64,000 nt of DNA from the NCBI GenBank assembly GCA_951406725.2, contig OX597819.1, forward strand, positions 69,378,001-69,442,000, in the 5' to 3' direction. Under the pieces are notes generated by a model. The model was not told the DNA's origin and did not search any database. It was given only the letters and a program-made list of their open reading frames with translations. A program made the position numbers and the translations under genes. This document shows, piece after piece, positions 46 to 53,544 of this stretch (position 1 is the first letter of the stretch; each line of letters opens with the position of its first letter). The DNA comes from Octopus vulgaris (taxonomy: Eukaryota).

Positions 46-138
46 TATATTTGCTTATGTGAATATATATGTATGAGGGGGGTGAATAGATATGTATATA
101 TAAATATAAATGTATGGATCTATAAATATATATATATA

Positions 139-460
139 GTGACAGTGGTTACTGTGAAAAACATTATATATTACTTGCGAGGGGACTCCTTAATCGAAGA
201 CCGATGCTTACCATGCGTTGACGAGAGGCAATTACCTTGAAACTATAGTCCGTATGTAGTACTCGGGTCTTCGAGGGAGGATGACCTCCCTTTGCAAGTA
301 ACACAAGGACACTGATAGTGTCTAAAGTCCTTCTGGTGTCATTGATCGCCTGGGCCTAAAAGCCTCAGTAACACCCCCCCCCCCCCCCCAGTGGCTAGCC
401 ACATTCAGATGGCTGATACCCCTTACGTTGTCGAGCGGTTACTGTTTATATCTCGTTCAG
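139..460 (+). mobile_element. Short hammerhead-bearing non-autonomous element (Penelope pLTR/retrozyme-like), copy 1
   Basis: Homologous to 3490-3772 (shared ggatgacctccctttgcaa, cagtaacacc, gatggc). Contains a hammerhead motif and is flanked by TA runs. Confidence 0.7.
212..256 (+). ncRNA. Minimal type I hammerhead ribozyme (C3U variant)
   Basis: catgcg-TTGACGA-gaggc aatt acctt-GAAA-ctatag-TC-cgtatg. Stem I is catgcg/cgtatg, stem III is the palindrome ACTATAGT, cleavage triplet GUC. Confidence 0.7.
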
Positions 461-748
461 AGATTTATTATTGTTATATATATATATATATAGATATATA
501 TATATAATTTCTGCAGTTATTATCAGTGTAATTTGGGGGTTTAAATAAGAGTTTTGACTGTTATTTCGAGGAGGTAGACATACCTAGTATATCTTTTGAT
601 TAATTTTTATCCTTCAGCTATTCAATGCTTTTAAGGGCTTGCAATCGCCTATATTATTGATTCTGTAATTGTCATTTTAAAATTGTTACACTAGATAATA
701 GCATAGGCAATGATATCTTAATTATTTTTCTCGTGAATTATTTGCTCC

Positions 749-785
<37 letters not shown>

Positions 786-1026
786 TGTCTTTATCCATCG
801 CCATAATGATATTTAAAAAATATTTCTAATGTAGATAGGTTTGTGTGTGTTTGTGTCTTATGTTCGTATAAAATGTCGTGCTTGCGTGTGTATCCGTGAT
901 ACGTATGGTATTTGTACGCAGCCTTATTTACATTTTGTGGTGATTCAAATTAACTTTGCCGTTCACATGTACGAACATTTATCTCTGATCTTTTATTTGA
1001 ATGCAATTCTATAGAATATTTTACAG

Positions 1027-1307
1027 GCAATCTCTCTGCATCTAATCCAAGAGCAGCTGTAATTTCTAATCCCTGTAATAATGAGGCGACACAGTGTGAT
1101 AGAGCCCATATATTTGAAGATTATGAGCGTGTTCCATTCAATTGACGTTAATATAATAACCGTTGTTACGTTTAGAAAATCATCCAAAAATATGGTGAAA
1201 GAAAGTGAAATCTCGATTCCTTTCTTTTATGATTTCTATTCATAATTTGGAGATACGCAACTAAAGAGCAAAGTGTCTCAATGAATTACATTTTGACCAT
1301 TTCTCAG
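1027..1307 (+). pseudogene. Possible decayed exon: EGF-like motif followed by a C-type-lectin-like N-terminus
   Basis: Acceptor ttttacag at 1026, donor cag|gtgaga at 1307. Translation SNPCNNEATQC..FEDYERVPFN*R*YNNRCYV*, with MISIHNLE later. Several stops. Confidence 0.35.
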
Positions 1308-1440
1308 GTGAGAAAATTATTACTTGATCTTCAAATTTACCTGGTGTTCTCTGCACGCCATATGCTCAAATTATGGCGGATTGCATTTTCAACTATACAT
1401 TTCTGTCAAGTATTTGTGTTCCGAAATACAAATTGTTAAA

Positions 1441-1665
1441 GCAGCGAGCTGACAGAAAGATTAGCACGCCTGGCCAAAATGCTCAGCAGTATTTCATCTC
1501 TCATTACGTTCTGAGTTCAAGTTTCGCTGAGGTCGACCTTGCCTTTCATCCTTTCGGGGTCGATAGATTACGTACCAGTCGCATAATGGGATTGATCTAA
1601 TCGACTGACACCCCTCTCGAAAAATTTTGGGCCTGTGGCTAGAGTGGAAAATAAATACCAAATTG
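1441..1665 (+). mobile_element. tRNA-derived SINE (family A, Meta-domain-like core)
   Basis: A-box-like gagctgacagaaagattagc, B-box-like gagttcaagtttcgc, core gcctttcatcctttcggggtcgatagattacgtaccag. Many copies in the window. Confidence 0.85.
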
Positions 1666-1675
1666 TTGTTATAGA

Positions 1676-1905
1676 GAGGCACATAGTGACAAGCTGACAA
1701 AATTGTTACAGCGTCGTACAAAAAATGCCTTGCCGTATTAAGCTTGTCTCTTTGATTTGGGTTCATTTCTCATTGAGGTGATGTATACCTTGCATTAGCG
1801 ATGGGGTCGATAAATTAATGCACTAGTTAAGTACTGAGGTTAATGGTTTTGATTACCTCCTACTCGAGAAATGACTGCTCTTGTACCTAGATCATAAACC
1901 GTTAG
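1676..1905 (+). mobile_element. Degenerate family A SINE, tandem to the previous copy
   Basis: gacaagctgacaaaattgtta...gggttcatttctc...ggggtcgataaattaatgcactag. Confidence 0.65.
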
Positions 1906-2084
1906 AGCAAGGAAAAGGTTGATGAGTGAGTCGCGACACGAAATTATTTCAGAAACTTTAGCTACATTACAAAGCTCTAAATCTCATTAAGTATTTTCTA
2001 AACAGATTAGCATACGTTAAACGAAAAACAAGGTATTTCATTATTATTTACAATTTTCCATACAAATTATACCGTACAAACATA

Positions 2085-2238
2085 GAAGGAAATTGTTATT
2101 CTCAAAGGCAGTATAGTATAGTATGAACATGATAAACTATCCATATTTTGCATAAAATCTGTCGGTCACCAGCCACAAGATTCGAACTCACATCCCTATG
2201 ATTACGCGTCAAGTGTTTTAACATTAAGCTAAACTGCC
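2085..2238 (-). mobile_element. tRNA-headed SINE-like fragment (family D)
   Basis: Minus strand reads ggcagtttagcttaatgttaaaacacttgacgcgtaatcatagggatgtgagttcgaatc (A/B boxes). Homologous to 2379-2518. Confidence 0.65.
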
Positions 2239-2298
2239 CGAACGACAAATTCTTCCGCAAATTTACGATATATAAATCTAGCTTTATAAGACGCTACC

Positions 2299-2661
2299 GT
2301 ATGTTAAATTCAACTTGCGTTGAAAGTCAACAAAGTTCGCTTTAGAAGCGTTGAGATGTATTGAAAGATACAGATAAGGAAATAATTTTATTCTCAAACG
2401 CAGGATAATGCTAATAATATAGCGTGAGCAGGATAAATTATCCATATTTTGCAGAAAAACCTGTCGGCGGCCAGCGATGAGACTCGAACGCACATCCCTG
2501 TGATTATGCGTCAAGTATTTTATCCTATTCGTGCTATATTATTAGCATTATCCTGCGATTGAGAATAAAATTATTTTCTTGTCTGTATCTTTCAATACAT
2601 CTCAACACTTCTAAAGCAAACTAGGTTCGTTGACTTTCAACGTAAGTTGAATTTAACGTAC
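2299..2661. mobile_element. Family D element with ~140-bp inverted arms around a tRNA-like loop
   Basis: 2299-2437 and 2519-2661 are near reverse complements. The loop has a minus-strand B-box gcgttcgagtc. Confidence 0.8.
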
Positions 2662-3244
2662 AAATATATGTTTGTCACTAATACATGCTGTAAGGGGTTT
2701 ATGCAATTAAAACACAATTAAGACAAAATTCCATTGGGGATCTGTAAAAAAATACCTGATTAGAAATAATGTAAAATTAATTCAATTGGATACAAAATGC
2801 AAAAAAGAATATGGAAATTTCATTTTGTTTCCTTGAAACATTGGTTCGTAATATCGGTTCAAGATCAGAAATTTCGTGAGGGTCGGCAAAGTTGATTAAA
2901 TTTAACCCACTGTTTGACTGGTATATTTTTTTCTATCTACCGATGAAATGCTTGTAATTATCGGAGAGGCTAACAATGAATCTGCTATATCACTACCTTC
3001 AACGCAAGACAAAATAGATACTAGTGTATGCAAATAATTCTATGACTGAATCTACACAGGAATCAGGAAGTGGCACATAATGTTGATTCTTGGAGTATTT
3101 TTAAGATGTTTAAATTCTTGTATATTCACCTGGAGAAAACGTTTTTTTTTTTCGCATAATGCAATAACTAAATTCATCAATATCTCGTATCATAACTCGT
3201 ATGAAATAGCTGTAGTAAATGAACCAATCTCCAACTGTTGGTGT

Positions 3245-3285
<41 letters not shown>

Positions 3286-3330
3286 CATAATAAATCTCTG
3301 AACGAGGTATAGACAATAACTGCACAACAA

Positions 3331-3772
3331 TGTGAGGTATATTTGCCATCTCAACATGGCTAACCACTAAGGGTGGGTGTTACTGTAGCTTATAGCCCCA
3401 GGAAAACATCTCCTCCAGCTGGCTTTAGGCACACTTTCTGTGCCCTAAGATATTTGCAAAGGGAGGTCATCCTTCAGTTTTTCGAGATCAGTGACGAAAC
3501 GTTACTGGAAAAATGATATAAGTATTTGCATTGTGATCCCTTTCATCGAAAACCGGTGATTGTCGTACGCTGATGACAGGTCAATACCTAGAAACTGCAG
3601 TCCGTGCGTATCACTTAGGTTGACGAGGGAAGGATGACCTCCCTTTGCAAATACCTTAGGGCACAGAAATGTGCCTAAAGCCAGATGGAGGAAATGTTCT
3701 CCTGGGGCTATAAGCTACAGTAACACCTACCCTTAATGGTTAGCTATATTGAGATGGCAAATATACCTCACA
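3331..3772 (+). mobile_element. Fold-back element with ~145-bp inverted arms and a hammerhead in the loop (copy 2 of the 139-460 family)
   Basis: Arm 3331-3475 (tgtgaggtatatttgccatctc...gggaggtcatccttc) versus arm 3629-3772 (gaaggatgacctccc...gagatggcaaatatacctcaca). A (TA)n run follows. Confidence 0.85.
3564..3608 (+). ncRNA. Minimal type I hammerhead ribozyme
   Basis: cgtacg-CTGATGA-caggt caat accta-GAAA-ctgcag-TC-cgtgcg. Complete core, palindromic stem III ACTGCAGT, GUC site at 3600-3602. Confidence 0.8.
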
Positions 3773-3793
3773 TATATATATATACATATGTAC

Positions 3794-3869: not shown

Positions 3870-4514
3870 TTCATCGCCACTTAAACATGGCTGTTCTGTA
3901 GGAACCGACATTCCTGCTACTTTTTGCCCCGAGACGGACGCCTACTCCATCCACGTTTACGTGGCAATAACCATTACTTCGTTATAGTTATTGTTTTATC
4001 TCTTACAGAGGTTTTTCTAACAAGCTAATTTGCTTGTGGCAAAACTAGTAGCTGTGTCGCTTGTTTTCTATATATTGCGAACTGGAATGAACTACTGCAA
4101 TCTCTAGCGAGCGAATATCGACCACGATGAGGTACTGTCAAATGATCAACAAGCTGGAGCATCATAGTGCTTCACTCCCCTTGCAATATATGTTGGGTGG
4201 AGGCGGCGAGCTGGCAGAATCGTTAGCACGCCGGGCGAAAAGCTTAGCGATATTTGGTCTGCCGTTACGTTCTAGGTTCAAATTCCGCCAAGGTCGACTT
4301 TGCCTTCCATTCTTTTGTGGTCGATTAAAGAAGTACCAGTTACTCACTGAGGTCGATGTAATCGAATTAATCCCTTTCTCTGTCCGTGTTTGTCCCCTCT
4401 ATGTTCAGCCCCTAGTAGACAATAAACAAATAAATATATATCGGGTAGAATTTGCACCGAATATACCACATGGAAGAGGTTCCTATGGAACAGCCATGTT
4501 TGAGTGGCGATAAA
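3870..4514. mobile_element. MITE-like element with ~37-bp TIRs and a nested SINE
   Basis: ttcatcgccacttaaacatggctgttctgtaggaacc (3870-3906) versus ggttcctatggaacagccatgtttgagtggcgataaa (4478-4514). Confidence 0.75.
4199..4440 (+). mobile_element. Family A SINE
   Basis: ggcggcgagctggcagaatcgttagcacgccggg...ggttcaaattccgccaaggtcgactttgccttcc...aataaacaaataaatata tail. Confidence 0.9.
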
Positions 4515-13050: not shown

Positions 13051-14763
13051 TAAAATTTTCGGAAAATTTTTGGTAAAAAGTTTCGACAAATTATTGGGTA
13101 AGATTTTCGGTGAAAATTTTCGAAAAATTTTTTATGAAAATTTTTAGGTAAAAGTTTTGGGTAAAACTTTCAGTGAAAATTCTCGATAAATTTTTGGATA
13201 AAATTTTCAGTGAAAATTTTAGAAAAATTTTGGTGAAAATTTTCGCCAAAAATTTTCAAAACAATTTTCAAAAAAACCATATAATGAATATGCTCTATAT
13301 GCTGAAGTCTATTAATGTCGACATCGTCATAGTTGTTAAGTGTAAATCAGAATCTGGTGTATCGTGGATGGTGAAGCATCTTGACAGTAGTAGTGAAGCA
13401 GAATTCACACTATATATATACAGAAAGCAGCAGCAGCCACCTAAAGATCTATTTTTAGCAATAGCATAAATCTATTTTTGGTTGAAATTTTCGGTGAACA
13501 ATTTCGGAAAATTTTTAGTGAAAATTTTCGAAAAATTTTCCCCAAAAAGTATGGAAAGGCCAGCCGTGCCAAAATCACAAAGTATGGAAGGCCAGCGGCG
13601 CCAAAATCACAAAGTATGGAAGGCCAGTGGTGCTCAAATCCCAAAGTATGGAAAGCCATTATTGGGTAAAATTTTCGGTCAAAATTTTCAAAAAATTTTT
13701 GAGGGAAATTTTTGGGTAAAAGTTTTGGTGATAATTTTCGAAAAACCATATAACGAATATGCTCCATATGCTGTAGTCTATAAACTTCGACATCGTTTTC
13801 GGTTAAAATGCTCGGAAAAATTTGGAGAAAATTTTCGTCTAAATTTTCTGAAAATTTTTTTTGTGAATATTTTCGAAAAATTTTTGGGTGAAATTTTCGG
13901 TGAATATTTTCAAAAATTTTGGGTAAAATTTTCAGTGAAAATTTTCGAAAGAAATTTGGGTAAAATTTTAGGTAATATTTTGGATAAATTTTTTGGTAAA
14001 ATTTTCGGTAAAATTTTCAAAAATTTTTTCGGCAAAATTTTCAGTGAAAATTTTCGAAAAATTTTTGGGTAAAATTTTAGGTAAAATTTTTAAAACATTT
14101 TTGGGTAACACTTTCGGGGAAAATTTTCGAAAAAAACCATATAACGAATATGCTTTATATGCTGAAGTCAATAAACGTCGACATCGTCATAGTTGTTAAG
14201 TGTATCGTGGATGGTAAGGCATCTTGACAGTAGTAGTAGAGCAGAATTCACTCTATATATACACAGAAATCAGCAGCAGCCACCTAAAAATCTATTTTTA
14301 GCAATAACATAAACCTATTTTTCGTTAAAATTTTCGGTGAACAATTTCGGAAAATATTTGGGTAAAATTTTTGGTGAAAATTTTCCAAAAATTTTTTATG
14401 AAAATTTTCGGCAAAAATTTTGAAAAAATTTTGGGTAAAATTTTCGATGAAAATTTTCGAATAATTTTGGGAGAAACTTTTCGAAAAACAATATAACGAA
14501 TATGCTCCATATGCTGAAGTCTATAAACGTCGACATTGTTTTCGCTGAAAACTTTCGGCGGAAAATTTTCGGGAAATATTTGAAGAATTTTCGAAATATA
14601 TTTGGGTAAAATTTATGGAAAATTTTTGGTGAAAATTTTCGAAACAATTTGGGTAAAACTTTCAGTGTAAATTCTCGATAAATTTTTGGATAAAATTTTC
14701 AGTGAAAATTTTAGAAAAATTTTGGTGAAAATTTTCGCCAAAAATTTTCAAAACAATTTTCAA

Positions 14764-14909: not shown

Positions 14910-17900
14910 TCACAGCCACCTAAAAATCTATTTCTAGATATAACATAAATCTAGTTTTCGTTAAAATTTTCGTTGAATAAATTCGGAAAATTTCTGTGTA
15001 AAATTTTTGATGAAAATTTTCAAAAAATTTTTTAGGAAAATTTTCGGCAAAAATCTTTTGAAAATTTTTGCCGAAAATTTTCCCAAACAAGTATGGAAGG
15101 CCAGTGGTGCAAAAATCAAAAATTCTGGAAGGCCAGCGGTGCCAAAATCACAAAGTATTGAAGGCCAACGGTGCCAAAATCACAAAGTATGGAAAGGAAG
15201 CGGGGTTAAAATCTCAAAGTATGGAAGGCCAACGGTGCCGAAATCACAAAGTATGGAAGGCGAACGTTGCCAAAATCCCAAAGTATGGAAAGCCATTATT
15301 GGGTAAAATTTTCGGAAAATTTTTGGTGAAAGTTTTCGACAAATTATTGGGTAAAATTTTCACTGAAAATTTTCGAAAAGTTTTTGGGTAAAATTTTCAG
15401 TGAAAATTTTCGAAAGAATTTTGGGTAAAATGTTAGGTAAAATTTTGGATAAATTTTTGGGGAAGATTTTCGAAAAACCATATAACGAATATGGTTCATA
15501 TGCTTTAGTCTATAAACGTCGACATCATTTTCGGTTAAAATGTTCGGACAAATTTGGATTCGTCTAAATTTTCGGAAAATTCTTCGTGAAAATTTTCGAA
15601 AAATTTTTCGGTAAAATTTTCGTTGAAAATTTCCGAAAAATTTTTGGGTAAAATATTTAGTGAAAATTTTCAAAAAAATTTTGGGTAAAATTTTAGGTAA
15701 AACTTTGGATAAATTTTTGGGGAAAATTTTCAGTAAAATTTTCAAACAATTTTTCGGCAAAACTTTTGGTGAAAATTTTCAAAAACTATATAACGAATAT
15801 ATATGCTCCATCTGCTGAAGTCTATAAACATCGATATCGTCTAGTTGTTAAGTGTAAAGCAGAATCTAGCGTATCGTGGATGGTGAGGCATCTTAACTGT
15901 AGTAGTACACCAGAATTCACTCTATTTACTTTCCAGGGAAAATTTTCACCAAAAATTTACAAAAAATTTTAGGTAAAATTTCCTGTGAAAATTTTCGAAA
16001 AATAATATAACGAATATGCTCCATATGCTGAAGTCTATTAACGTTGACATTGTTTTCGTTGAAAATGTTCGGGGAAAAATTTTCGGGAAATATTTAGTGA
16101 AAATTTTCCAAAAATATTTGGGTAAAATTTTCGGAAAATTTTTGTTGAAAATTTTCAAAAAAATTTGTGTAAAATTTTCGATAAATTTTTGGATAAAATT
16201 TTCGGTTCAAATTTTCAAAAAATTGTGGGGAAAATTTTCGAAAAATTGTTTGGAAAATTTTGGGCAAAAGTTTTCAAAAATTTTGAGCAAAATTTTCGGT
16301 GAAAATTTTCGAAAAATTTTGGGTAAAATTTTAGGTAAAATTTTGGATAAATTTTTTGTGAAAATTTTCGAAAAATATTTTGGGAAAATTTTCGAAAGAA
16401 TTTTGGGTAAAATTTTATGTAAAATTTTGGATAAAAGTTTGGGGAAAATTTTCGGTAAAATTTTCAAAAATTTTTCGGCAAAATTTTTGGTGAAAATTTT
16501 CGTAAAACTATATAACGAGTATGCTCCATATGCTGTAGTCTATGAACGTCGATATCGTTTTCGGTTAAAATTTTCGGCTAAATTTTCGGAAAATTTTTCG
16601 CCAAAATTTTTCGGCTAAAGTTTTCGGCAAAAGTTTTCAAAAAATTTTGGGTAAAATTTTCGGTGAAAATTTTGGAAAGAATTTTGGGTAAAATTTTAGG
16701 TAAAATTTTGGATAAATCTTTGGGGAAAATTTTCGAAAAACCATATAACGAATATGCTCCATATGCTGTAGTCTATGAACGTCGATATCGTTTTCGGTTA
16801 AAATTTTCGGCTAAATTTTAGGAAAATTTTTCGCCAAAATTTTTCGGCTAAAGTTTTCGGCAAAAGTTTTCAAAAAATTTTGGGTAAAATTTTCGGTGAA
16901 AATTTTGGAAAGAATTTTGGGTAAAATTTTAGGTAAAATTTTGGATAAATCTTTGGGGAAAATTTTCGAAAAACCATATAACGAATATGCTCCATATGCT
17001 GTAGTCTATGAACGTCGATATCGTTTTCGGTTAAAATTTTTCGGCTAAAGTTTTCGGCAAAAGTTTTCAAAAAATTTTGGGTAAAATTTTCGGTGAAAAT
17101 TTTGGAAAGAATTTTGGGTAAAACTTTAGGTAAAATTTTGGATAAATCTTTGGGAAAATTTTCGAAAAACCATATAACGAATATGCTCCATATGCTGTAG
17201 TCTATATACTTCGACATCGTTTTCGGTTAAAATGTTCGGAAAAATTTGGAGAAAATTTTCGTCTAAATTTTCAAAACAATTTTCAAAAAAACCATATAAT
17301 GAATATGCTCTATATGCTGAAGTCTATTAATGTCGACATCGTCATAGTTGTTAAGTGTAAATCAGAATCTGGTGTATCGTGGATGGTGAAGCATCTTGAC
17401 AGTAGTAGTGAAGCAGAATTCACACTATATATATACAGAAAGCAGCAGCAGCCACCTAAAGATCTATTTTTTTAGCAATAGCATAAATCTATTTTTGGTT
17501 GAAATTTTCGGTGAACAATTTCGGAAAATTTTTAGTGAAAATTTTCGAAAAATTTTCCCCAAAAAGTATGGAAGGCCAGCCGTGCCAAAATCACAAAGTA
17601 TGGAAGGCCAGCGGCGCCAAAATCACAAAGTATGGAAGGCCAGTGGTGCTCAAATCCCAAAGTATGGAAAGCCATTATTGGGTAAAATTTTCGGTCAAAA
17701 TTTTCAAAAAATTTTTGAGGGAAATTTTTGGGTAAAAGTTTTGGTGATAATTTTCGAAAAACCATATAACGAATATGCTCCATATGCTGTAGTCTATAAA
17801 CTTCGACATCGTTTTCGGTTAAAATGCTCGGAAAAATTTGGAGAAAATTTTCGTCTAAATTTTCTGAAAATTTTTTTGTGAATATTTTCGAAAAATTTTT

Positions 17901-20900
17901 GGTGAAATTTTCGGTGAATATTTTCAAAAATTTTGGGTAAAATTTTCAGTGAAAATTTTCGAAAGAAATTTGGGTAAAAGTTTAGGTAATATTTTGGATA
18001 AATATTTTGGTAAAATTTTCGGTAAAATTTTCAAAAATATTTTCGGCAAAATTTTCAGTGAAAATTTTGCCGAAAAATTTTTGGGTAAAATTTTAGGTAA
18101 AATTTTTAAAACATTTTTGGGTAACACTTTCGGGGAAAATTTTCGAAAAAACCATATAACGAATATGCTTTATATGCTGAAGTCAATAAACGTCGACATC
18201 GTCATAGTTGTTAAGTGTATCGTGGATGGTAAGGCATCTTGACAGTAGTAGTAGAGCAGAATTCACTCTATATATACACAGAAATCAGCAGCAGCCACCT
18301 AAAAATCTATTTTTAGCAATAACATAAACCTATTTTTCGTTAAAATTTTCGGTGAACAATTTCGGAAAATATTTGGGTAAAATTTTTGGTGAAAATTTTC
18401 CAAAAATTTTTTATGAAAATTTTCGGCAAAAATTTTGAAAAATTTTGGGTAAAATTTTCGATGAAAATTTTCGAATAATTTTGGGAGAAACTTTTCGAAA
18501 AACAATATAACGAATATGCTCCATATGCTGAAGTCTATAAACGTCGACATTGTTTTCGCTGAAAACTTTCGGCGGAAAATTTTCGGGAAATATTTGAAGA
18601 ATTTTCGAAATATATTTGGGTAAAATTTATGGAAAATTTTTGGTGAAAATTTTCGAAACAATTTGGGTAAAACTTTCAGTGTAAATTCTCGATAAATTTT
18701 TGGATAAAATTTTCAGTGAAAATTTTAGAAAAATTTTGGTGAAAATTTTCGCCAAAAATTTTCAAAACAATTTTCAAAAAAACCATATAATGAATATGCT
18801 CTATATGCTGAAGTCTATTAATGTCGACATCGTCATAGTTGTTAAGTGTAAATCAGAATCTGGTGTATCGTGGATGGTGAAGCATCTTGACAGTAGTAGT
18901 AAAGCAGAATTCACTCTATATATTCACAGAAAGCAGCAGCAGCCACCTAAAAATCTATTTCTAGATATAACATAAATCTAGTTTTCGTTAAAATTTTCGT
19001 TGAATAAATTCGGAAAATTTCTGGGTAAAAATTTTGATGAAAATTTTCAAAAAATTTTTTAGGAAAATTTTCGGCAAAAATCTTTTGAAAATTTTTGCCG
19101 AAAATTTTCCCAAACAAGTATGGAAGGCCAGTGGTGCAAAAATCACAAATTCTGGAAGGCCAGCGGTGCCAAAATCACAAAGTATTGAAGGCCAACGGTG
19201 CCAAAATCACAAAGTATGGAAAGGAAGCGGGGTTAAAATCTCAAAGTATGGAAGGCCAACGGTGCCGAAATCACAAAGTATGGAAGGCGAACGTTGCCAA
19301 AATCCCAAAGTATGGAAAGCCATTATTGGGTAAAATTTTCGGAAAATTTTTGGTGAAAGTTTTCGACAAATTATTGGGTAAAATTTTCACTGAAAATTTT
19401 CGAAAAGTTTTTGGGTAAAATTTTCAGTGAAAATTTTCGAAAGAATTTTGGGTAAAATTTTAGGTAAAATTTTGGATAAATTTTTGGGGAAGATTTTCGA
19501 AAAACCATATAACGAATATGGTTCATATGCTTTAGTCTATAAACGTCGACATCATTTTCGGTTAAAATGTTCGGACAAATTTGGATTCGTCTAAATTTTC
19601 GGAAAATTCTTCGTGAAAATTTTCGAAAAATTTTTCGGTAAAATTTTCGTTGAAAATTTCCGAAAAATTTTTGGGTAAAATATTTAGTGAAAATTTTCAA
19701 AAAAATTTTGGGTAAAATTTTAGGTAAAACTTTGGATAAATTTTTGGGGAAAATTTTCAGTAAAATTTTCAAACAATTTTTCGGCAAAATTTTTGGTGAA
19801 AATTTTCAAAAACTATATAACGAATATGCTCCATATGCTGAAGTCTATAAACATCGATATCGTCTAGTTGTTAAGTGTAAAGCAGAATCTAGCGTATCGT
19901 GGATGGTGAGGCATCTTAACTCTATTTAAATTCCAGGGAAAATTTTCACCAAAAATTTACAAAAAATTTAGGTAAAATTTCCTATGAAAATTTTCGAAAA
20001 ATAATATAACGAATATGCTCCATATGCTGAAGTCTATTAACGTTGACATTGTTTTCGTTGAAAATGTTCGGGGAAAAATTTTCGGGAAATATTTAGTGAA
20101 AATTTTCCAAAAATATTTGGGTAAAATTTTCGGAAAATTTTTGTTGAAAATTTTCAAAAAAATTTGTGTAAAATTTTCGATAAATTTTTGGATAAAATTT
20201 TCGCTTCAAATTTTCGAAAAATTGTGGGGAAAATTTTCGAAAAATTGTTTGGAAAATTTTGGGCAAAAGTTTTCAAAAAATTTTGAGTAAAATTTTCGGT
20301 GAAAATTTTCGAAAGAATTTTGGGTAAAATTTTAGGTAAAATTTTGGATAAATTTTTTGTGAAAATTTTCGAAAAATATTTTGGGAAAATTTTCGAAAGA
20401 ATTTTGGGTAAAATTTTATGTAAAATTTTGGATAAAAGTTTGGGGAAAATTTTCGGTAAAATTTTCAAAAAATTTTTCGGCAAAATTTTTGGTGAAAATT
20501 TTCGTAAAACTATATAACGAGTATGCTCCATATGCTGTAGTCTATGAACGTCGATATCGTTTTCGGTTAAAATTTTCGGCTAAATTTTCGGAAAATTTTT
20601 CGCCAAAATTTTTCGGCTAAAGTTTTCGGCAAAAGTTTTCAAAAAATTTTGGGTAAAATTTTCGGTGAAAATTTTGGAAAGAATTTTGGGTAAAATTTTA
20701 GGTAAAATTTTGGATAAATTTTTGGGGAAAATTTTCGAAAAACCATATAACGAATATGCTCCATATGCTGTAGTCTATATACTTCGACATCGTTTTCGGT
20801 TAAAATGTTCGGAAAAATTTGGAGAAAATTTTCGTCTAAATTTTCGGAATATTTTTTGGGAAAATTTTCGAAAACTTTTTGGGTAAAATTTTCGGTGAAA

Positions 20901-53355: not shown

Positions 53356-53544
53356 GAAACAAATTCAGCCTGGTTTTTATCTGCTCCATTCTCTCATTTG
53401 GGATATTTAATCACATACCCAGCAACCCCAACAGCTAACCGTAGCTAAATATATATATATATAGCTGTTGGGGTTGCTGGGTATGTGATTAAATATCCCA
53501 AATGAGAGAATGGAGCAGATAAAAACCAGGCTGAATTTGTTTCA
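53355..53544. repeat. Perfect 83-bp inverted repeat with a 24-nt spacer
   Basis: 53355-53437 is the exact reverse complement of 53462-53544. Confidence 0.95.

Follow-up and report, generated by a model that had tools for sequence, protein, structure and literature searches.

The closest described systems are the non-LTR retrozymes of animals, which include mussel repeats of about 350-390 bp and the axolotl elements Rtz331 and Rtz353 (Cervera and de la Pena 2020, PMC7229834). As characterized there, these are non-coding units of 150-450 bp with a GC content under 50% and one type I hammerhead per unit; they form tandem copies and predicted self-paired circles, are flanked by duplications of more than 4 bp and coexist with coding Penelope-like elements. 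The repeat family of Octopus vulgaris described here has all of these features (GC 42-45%) and, like retrozymes, lacks LTRs. The enzymes that move animal retrozymes are still argued from co-occurrence and from similarity to pLTRs (PMC7229834; bioRxiv 10.64898/2026.07.22.740005), and of 9 retrozyme dimers predicted in a related study, only one cleaved in vitro (bioRxiv 10.64898/2026.07.22.740005). It is highly probable that the octopus family, of about 355 nt per unit, is a non-LTR retrozyme whose tandem transcripts likely self-cleave and circularize and are likely reverse transcribed in trans, by a Penelope-like reverse transcriptase with a GIY-YIG endonuclease, into AT-rich or TA-repeat DNA.

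Several features set the family apart from known retrozymes. Most of its copies are dispersed, ranging from single monomers to short tandems, and they have inverted 5' arms and a one-sided tail of about 43 nt; within this one family, moreover, the 3-8 core pair takes three states. The word 'inverted' has 0 occurrences in the main text of PMC7229834, where neither inverted arms nor a one-sided tail are described for retrozymes; cephalopod families may be listed in the supplements of the cited papers. The inverted arms and the one-sided tail are shared with canonical endonuclease-positive Penelope-like elements that have a zinc-finger-like RT-EN linker (Neptune/Nematis type), for which partial tandems, inverted 5'-truncated copies, a one-sided tail of 30-40 bp, microsatellite targeting and, close to the 3' end, a type I hammerhead are described (PMC8557442). 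Unlike coding Penelope-like elements, the octopus family lacks an ORF, and it is not homologous to the terminal repeats of the coding families sampled.

The window, a 64 kb stretch of the octopus genome, was scanned on both strands for type I hammerheads, with matches at 212-256 and 3564-3608 only. In 100 block-shuffled windows loose matches averaged 0.13 and strict matches 0. The strings noted in an earlier sequence-only reading stand exactly at these positions, its predicted cuts after 250 and after 3602 are correctly placed, and the two elements are homologous, as it held, with 72-77% identity. Its structural description needs revision: helix II, given as 5 bp with a 4-nt loop, has 4 bp and a 6-nt loop, and the label 'minimal' is wrong for what is a canonical type I hammerhead, with helix I continued past an internal loop and with loop contacts. 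The compensatory changes proposed between the copies are borne out at the central pair of stem III and, in stem I, at a single pair (A-U to G-C); two further stem I pairs are altered on one side only. Unflagged in that reading, core position 3 of copy 1 is U instead of C with G8 retained, a variant of the CUGANGA consensus still able to pair as a wobble. At the first position of helix II (10.1-11.1), copy 1 has a G-U pair and copy 2 a C/A mismatch. The type I core CUGANGA...GAAA...UH with three helices is present in copy 2 and in subfamily F. Neither window ribozyme is fully canonical, given U3-G8 in copy 1 and the mismatch at the helix II base in copy 2.

The 83-nt pieces that include the extension of helix I fold with z scores of -3.7 (copy 1) and -2.7 (copy 2), and the 45-nt cores folded alone reach only about -1.5; the minimum-energy folds mispair part of the core in all four pieces. 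A covariance-model comparison went against the hammerhead assignment, with no hammerhead family in Rfam at either site at E<=10 and none among the 150 listed of 270 matches in the whole window. This miss is probably due to the very short stem III, and an Rfam match is a database score, not a class-defining property.

Each hammerhead lies inside its own insertion of the repeat (Table 1). The copies belong to different subfamilies, A and B, which are about 75% alike; they are independent insertions, not a pair, and neither is a tandem. A heterodimer of the two ribozymes was considered and rejected, as they belong to distinct insertions at a distance of 3.35 kb and a mixed duplex of their stems III has -2.6 kcal/mol, compared with -7.2 and -11.1 for the homoduplexes. 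A joint function is unlikely. With one ribozyme each, the copies are most likely inert passengers and are themselves probably ordinary dead insertions.

Table 1. Features of the two repeat copies in the window
Feature	Position	Strand	Evidence
Copy 1, subfamily A monomer, nearly whole, slightly 5'-truncated, with 3' tail and TA-repeat flanks	138..475	+	94% identity to tandem-derived A monomer positions 25-361
Copy 1 extended type I hammerhead: helix Ib, internal loop 1, helix Ia, core, helices II and III	193..275	+	Fold -28.3 kcal/mol, z -3.7; covariation
Copy 1 hammerhead core: U3-G8 wobble, G10.1-U11.1, palindromic stem III, predicted cut after 250	212..256	+	Motif scan; U3 in family
Copy 2 inverted 5'-truncated arm, monomer positions 165-354, with 3' tail, without ribozyme	3287..3475	-	91% to B monomer; inverted repeat; alignment
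Copy 2 forward monomer, subfamily B positions 11-311, without last ~43 nt, TA-repeat end	3475..3773	+	92% to B monomer
Copy 2 extended type I hammerhead	3545..3627	+	Fold -25.7 kcal/mol, z -2.7
Copy 2 hammerhead core: canonical C3-G8, C10.1/A11.1 mismatch, palindromic stem III, predicted cut after 3602	3564..3608	+	Motif scan; mismatch subfamily-wide

A first look at the genome gave 2273 and 1388 candidates, and 888 intact anchored cores were found (control 0); the very young sister subfamily F has 425 exact cores. The tandem period is 348-358 nt, and two or more consecutive intact hammerheads stand in the tandem copies at loci L046, L056, L057, L244 and L257. In six monomers examined the GC content is 0.42-0.45 and the longest ATG frame 36-73 aa. 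The high copy number and the lack of any ORF over 73 aa (6/6) bear out the earlier proposal of a non-coding retroelement family. Circularized monomers have predicted folds with z of -4.1 to -5.8 in five of six cases; the remaining one, a mixed-subfamily unit, has -1.5. Assembled contigs of sequencing runs that are not recorded as RNA (two checks) attest the presence of family sequence only and carry nothing on strand, ends or circles. That the family is processed by its ribozyme, as was also proposed, fits the evidence and is what we infer.

In the family alignment the helices covary: 90% of cells are paired, and 13 of 30 pairs show double changes, as many as in 0 of 500 shuffles, a count over related sequences that is not a probability. 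Slid controls drop to 27-46% paired. Helix II has 4 bp, helix Ia 6 bp and helix Ib about 15 bp, with a defined internal loop, which differs from the minimal pLTR hammerheads, where helix II is long (7-8 bp), helix I is short (4-5 bp), loop 1 is poorly defined and an extra base follows A9 (PMC4209133). In 100 copies the last base of loop 2 is A in 98 and the last base of the loop 1 bulge a pyrimidine in 97. These terminal bases match the contacts of Schistosoma (PMC2632901). As in the full-length hammerhead described from Schistosoma mansoni, the 3' strand of loop 1 starts with U, its 5' strand ends in a pyrimidine and hexaloop 2 ends in A, the hexaloop being identical in subfamilies C, A2 and Bp (PMC2632901). 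Unlike that hammerhead, the octopus one has a two-base-pair stem III with a palindromic loop, and the window subfamilies A and B carry either U3-G8 or the mismatch at the base of helix II.

Positions 3 and 8 can pair in 13/13 alignment rows and in 97 of 100 copies (C-G 41, U-G 40, U-A 16), which were pre-selected for an intact core in a search that left both positions free. U3 occurs in 99 of the 100 matches listed among 218 exact genomic matches, and the U3-G8 wobble is fixed in subfamily A, that of copy 1. At 10.1-11.1 the pair is G-U in A and G-C in C, D and F, and the C/A mismatch is fixed in B and E; in axolotl HHR_Amex2, too, the base of helix II is mismatched, and this ribozyme is more effective in dimeric form (PMC7229834). 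The U3-A8 variant, known from the Cercyon elements of Schistosoma, is present in the octopus family as well, in subfamilies C and D.

Such departures from consensus, which normally lead to rejection of a match (PMC3088659), raise the possibility that the A and B ribozymes are crippled or dispensable, that these retrozymes spread through recognition of the 3' tail by the reverse transcriptase and that the fold was kept for RNA stability or protein binding. The fully canonical core of F, the youngest subfamily, and the proliferation of Naiad elements without hammerheads (PMC8557442) are in line with this. Against it, 3-8 pairing is kept in nearly all copies, the subfamilies in which the two variants became fixed each grew to hundreds of copies, and a stem III palindrome that is not fully pairable in one hairpin survives in four versions; we regard crippled or dispensable ribozymes as very improbable. 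The palindrome is found in 81 of 100 copies in three versions, with the fourth in subfamily F. Its retention had been noted for the two window copies, and together with the covariation across subfamilies it upholds the view that the structure was under selection. A palindrome kept in four versions also favors cleavage as a dimer. In computed folds the arm-swapped dimer is favored by 5-13 kcal/mol in eight of nine tandem pairs and tied in the remaining pair, in which the palindrome is broken; for a monomer, the active fold is 5-8 kcal/mol less favorable than the free one.

The 3-8 pair is likely to have changed in the order C-G, U-A, U-G wobble, as judged from tree topology. The direction rests on rooting because divergence from consensus (3.6-6.7% in the older subfamilies, from small groups) gives no age order. 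A first tree of units with flanks was dropped as too noisy, and trees on the sequence downstream of the ribozyme were used instead. A 361-nt hammerhead repeat, G, was rejected as outgroup because it does not significantly resemble A, B or F. Under the retrozyme reading, selection would have operated on the source copies from which one subfamily after another arose. The unusual inherited changes of the ribozyme core, with three 3-8 states, are what is new here; the element class itself is known. The U3-G8 core may already be described among the dimer-cleaving hammerhead variants of Penelope-like elements.

The insertions comprise partial tandems and inverted 5'-truncated arms with the one-sided tail, often in TA repeats, and matching footprints have been described for Penelope-like elements (PMC8557442). 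Of 100 copies, 43 begin immediately after their own 3' tail (a circular permutation), and 45 have an inverted copy upstream. A TA repeat borders one or both ends in 21/21 F, 15/27 A and 9/30 B insertions, against a background of 6%. Candidate target duplications of 8-14 bp were found at 13 of 57 A and B insertions and are indiscernible in TA targets. The 190-nt inverted arms of copy 2, flanked by TA, and the short tandem arrays could also suggest a DNA-level repeat, either a satellite or a MITE-like foldback with those arms as terminal inverted repeats, in which the hammerhead is a relic. This is largely refuted by inversion points that differ at every locus; many copies have no inversion, the RNA structure covaries, and the copies, scattered across many contigs, share a fixed 3' end and are truncated to varying extents at the 5' end, as target-primed reverse transcription predicts. 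A DNA-level origin is thus extremely improbable.

Coding elements with reverse transcriptase and GIY-YIG domains are abundant and young in the genome. They end in TA repeats with or without a tail of about 33 nt and leave a footprint of the retrozyme type. This identity of footprints, and the derivation of Xenopus retrozymes from pLTRs (bioRxiv 10.64898/2026.07.22.740005), would be expected if each repeat were a 5'-truncated 3' end (pLTR) of some coding Penelope-like element, with copying in cis, a hammerhead that is the element's pLTR ribozyme and no independent circular RNA. Only about 150 of 6136 GIY-YIG candidates were scored and 72 loci inspected. Within this sample the coding families carry different hammerheads of their own and no homologous terminal repeat, the retrozyme forms the terminal repeat at 0 of 72 coding-element loci, and retrozyme pieces near coding elements (L107, L109/L111, L125, L132) fall outside the element ends. 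At the loci examined, the unit start is preceded by the tail of the unit itself, by an inverted copy or by unique flank, and never by a shared longer parent; 27 testable unique 5' flanks share sequence only in segmental duplicates and in two short matches (21 and 38 nt). A non-exhaustive search of family copies found no contiguous ORF for reverse transcriptase or GIY-YIG. The family-like piece at L109 was rejected as a pLTR, since it lies ~600 bp past the TA-flanked end of the coding element and is a separate insertion. Widely spaced A copies (L061-L067) were likewise rejected as pLTR pairs: they enclose no Penelope-type ORF, and several are segmental duplications. An origin as pLTRs is therefore unlikely, and the data support a stand-alone retrozyme that is not the pLTR of any coding element sampled.

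For this retrozyme the family, tandem period, covarying structure, insertion footprints and coding Penelope-like elements with like footprints were computed directly, and the life cycle is predicted from them. Tandem transcripts would likely cleave themselves into monomers, with neighboring hammerheads pairing their palindromic stems III and swapping helix I arms in a double hammerhead that would excise unit-length RNA. By analogy with known retrozymes, a host ligase would close the monomer to a self-paired circle, which would be reverse transcribed over more than one unit. The reverse transcriptase and GIY-YIG endonuclease of a Penelope-like element would then be likely to insert the product in trans.

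The octopus retrozyme has the full Penelope footprint without a terminal sequence common to the sampled coding families. The subfamily ladder forms a natural mutagenesis series, with C-G, U-A and U-G at 3-8 and G-C, G-U and C/A at 10.1-11.1. Very young F copies coexist with very young coding elements, so trans-mobilization is directly testable. Tentatively, and at somewhat less than even confidence, the family may record the walk of a ribozyme core from C3-G8 through U3-A8 to a mobile U3-G8 wobble. If this is true, the 'disabled' U3-G8 core would be a working ribozyme in nature, tuned and dependent on the dimer, and the still-active sister F with the near-identical coding Penelope-like elements would be a pair in which the trans-mobilization of an unrelated circular ribozyme RNA could be shown.

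A scan of both strands of the 64-kb window for type I hammerheads returned exactly two matches, the same two strings that the sequence-only reading had placed at 212-256 and 3564-3608; 100 block-shuffled windows gave a mean of 0.13 loose hits and 0 strict hits. Rfam contained no hammerhead family match at either site. On their own the 45-nt cores outdid shuffles in folding only slightly (z about -1.5); the 83-nt extended versions did so more strongly (z -3.7 for copy 1, -2.7 for copy 2) because helix I runs on beyond the internal loop. Helix II consists of 4 bp and a hexaloop in both; copy 1 opens it with a G-U pair, copy 2 with a C/A mismatch. Core position 3 is U in copy 1.

Each motif sits within a repeat unit; the two elements are homologous, as proposed from the sequence. 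The host genome (2.8 Gb, 227 contigs) was searched for this family, giving 2273 and 1388 first-look candidates, of which 40 each were scored. A pattern in which nothing but an upstream anchor and some of the core was fixed matched 888 genomic places (control 0). Tandem copies have a period of 348-358 nt and a GC content of 0.42-0.45, and the tandem-derived monomers contain no ATG frame longer than 73 aa; the high copy number and short frames agree with the non-coding retroelement family suggested earlier. Five of six circular monomers were predicted to fold at z -4.1 to -5.8, into a long rod that the ribozyme closes off. Coordinates are listed in the table, together with other repeats of the window; the foldback repeat there looks like another tandem/inverted retroelement insertion, and the SINE-like repeat is presumably a common cephalopod SINE.

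Hammerhead-bearing repeats and other features in the window and at loci elsewhere in the genome (L numbers, with positions within the locus after the colon)
Feature	Position	Strand	Description
Copy 1	window 138-475		monomer, slightly truncated at its 5' end, with TA repeats on both sides
Copy 2, inverted arm	window 3287-3475		190 nt; bears the ~43-nt end missing from the forward monomer
Copy 2, forward monomer	window 3475-3773		joined to inverted arm; without last ~43 nt
Foldback repeat	window 2113-2627		112-nt inverted arms 2329-2440 and 2516-2627 (89%); also direct repeat ~301 nt apart with tRNA-like box
SINE-like repeat	window 1441-1613, 4203-4374		two copies, 72-82% alike
Inverted repeat	window 53360-53539		near-perfect, 180 nt, around short TA stretch; Rfam miRNA match under gathering score
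Minisatellite-like duplicated stretches	window 13444-14069, 15989-16615		long repetitive open frames
Repeated stretch	window 15030-15089, 19057-19116		
Mixed retrozyme tandem	L175:700-1130		head-to-tail units of different subfamilies, C then D
Subfamily F	L232:720-910	-	also L233-L257; nearly always within TA repeats
Repeat G	L231:739-1290		second, unrelated 361-nt hammerhead family; U3-A8 core, helix I extended; TA-flanked, also in partial tandems; 2744 candidates at first look, the best copies being 94-97% alike
First coding Penelope-like family	L099-L106		many intact 781-aa RT + GIY-YIG frames; 479-aa frame upstream in two loci; AT-rich U3-A8 hammerhead near 3' end
Second coding Penelope-like family	L109:2582-4980, L111-L140		near-identical copies, tandem period 4271 nt; 3' hammerhead-like motif in which C replaces U at core position 4, without exception in the 30 loci read

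Selection on the structure, also claimed from the sequence alone, is supported by covariation: among 13 representatives 90% of cells were paired and 13 of 30 pairs carried double changes, a level reached by 0 of 500 shuffles (the rows are related, so this count is no probability), and slid controls were 27-46% paired. Of 100 copies, 98 have A as the last base of loop 2 and 97 a pyrimidine as the last base of the loop 1 bulge, both positions having been free in the search. These contact positions are those described between loops 1 and 2 of the Schistosoma hammerhead (PMC2632901); the ribozymes are therefore of canonical type I and not, as first read, of the minimal form (PMC4209133). Stem III, noted earlier as palindromic in the two window motifs, is so in 81/100 copies with three versions, and a fourth occurs in subfamily F. 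The palindrome favours a double hammerhead, since the central bases of stem III cannot pair inside one hairpin. Under constrained folding the swapped dimer was predicted to be better by 5-13 kcal/mol in eight of nine tandem pairs; the remaining pair, with a broken palindrome, gave a predicted tie.

Insertion footprints were read at 90 loci from the chromosome 1-2 part of the 888 places. The 100 distinct intact cores at these loci include a few segmental duplicates. The unit's own tail lies directly upstream of its start in 43 copies, and an inverted copy lies upstream in 45. After 41 copies were dropped by a strict end criterion, the 27 unique 5' flanks passing the filter shared duplicates and two short matches, nothing more. 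TA repeats border one or both ends of 21/21 F, 15/27 A and 9/30 B insertions (random window positions, 6%). There were also 13 candidate duplications, each 8-14 bp long. Penelope-like elements are described as leaving footprints of this kind: partial tandems, a copy that is inverted and truncated at its 5' end, a tail of 30-40 bp on one side, and a bias towards microsatellites (PMC8557442).

GIY-YIG matches were found at 148 of 150 scored places, out of 6136 candidates, many within 781-aa frames. In one of these proteins RT and GIY-YIG domains were identified, along with a cysteine linker of the Neptune/Nematis kind as defined in PMC8557442. In the second coding family, 40/40 scored copies were essentially identical across 501 nt. 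Both coding families end in TA repeats, with or without a ~33-nt tail, and carry hammerheads of their own, unlike those of the retrozyme. The retrozyme served as terminal repeat in none of 72 coding-element loci, and its pieces at L107, L109/L111, L125 and L132 lie outside the coding-element ends; as the 72 loci are a small sample against 6136 candidates, a coding parent element may still exist, though this is unlikely. Reverse transcription of the retrozyme is likely performed by Penelope-like proteins in trans.

Core positions 3-8 are C-G in 41, U-G in 40, U-A in 16 and other in 3 of 100 copies; within subfamily A, U3 occurs in 99 of the 100 matches listed out of 218 exact ones. Trees of sequence downstream of the core, in which the groups (some small) had been defined by ribozyme positions outside 3 and 8, formed a ladder E, B2, B, Bp/C, D, A3, A2/A1; most nodes had support of 85-100, those near Bp and C 47-62. 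Downstream-only clustering agreed broadly with the ribozyme-letter groups. F, which is 23-36% distant and fully canonical in its core, joins at the C-G end; C-G is therefore likely ancestral, followed by U-A and then U-G. This order is tempered by the small size of some groups, by the way they were defined, and by the mixed tandem, which suggests recombination; its units point to template switching or to one unit having inserted into another already in place. As a natural covariant, U3-A8 has been described before (PMC3088659, PMC4209133); no account of family-wide U3-G8 was found in the accessible literature searched. All 41 full-length F hits showed 100% identity across 191 nt. The exact 37-nt core occurs 425 times, often at a spacing of 353 nt, with tandems reaching at least five units. 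By its sequence, F is a very young sister subfamily and probably active now.

Tandem transcripts would be cut by double hammerheads, a host ligase would close the monomer into a circle, and reverse transcription would then run past unit length, the latter two steps as in known retrozymes (PMC7229834). The family, tandem period, covariation, footprints and coexisting coding elements are observed. Against the mechanism, neither core in the window is perfect, folding the monomer into its active form has a predicted cost of 5-8 kcal/mol, and 8/9 predicted Xenopus retrozyme dimers were reported uncleaved (bioRxiv 10.64898/2026.07.22.740005). With one ribozyme each, neither window copy could release a monomer alone.

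Non-LTR retrozymes have been described before, among them some of ~350-390 bp in a mollusc, and a Penelope link has been proposed; PMC6765202 and PMC7151607 add background. Octopus or cephalopod hammerheads received only passing mentions in the available texts searched, including PMC8557442, and hammerhead, retrozyme and ribozyme are absent from the accessible main text of a 2026 octopus repeat annotation (PMC13282606). What rises above the routine here is the core-variant ladder, together with the pairing of a probably active F with its likely helper.
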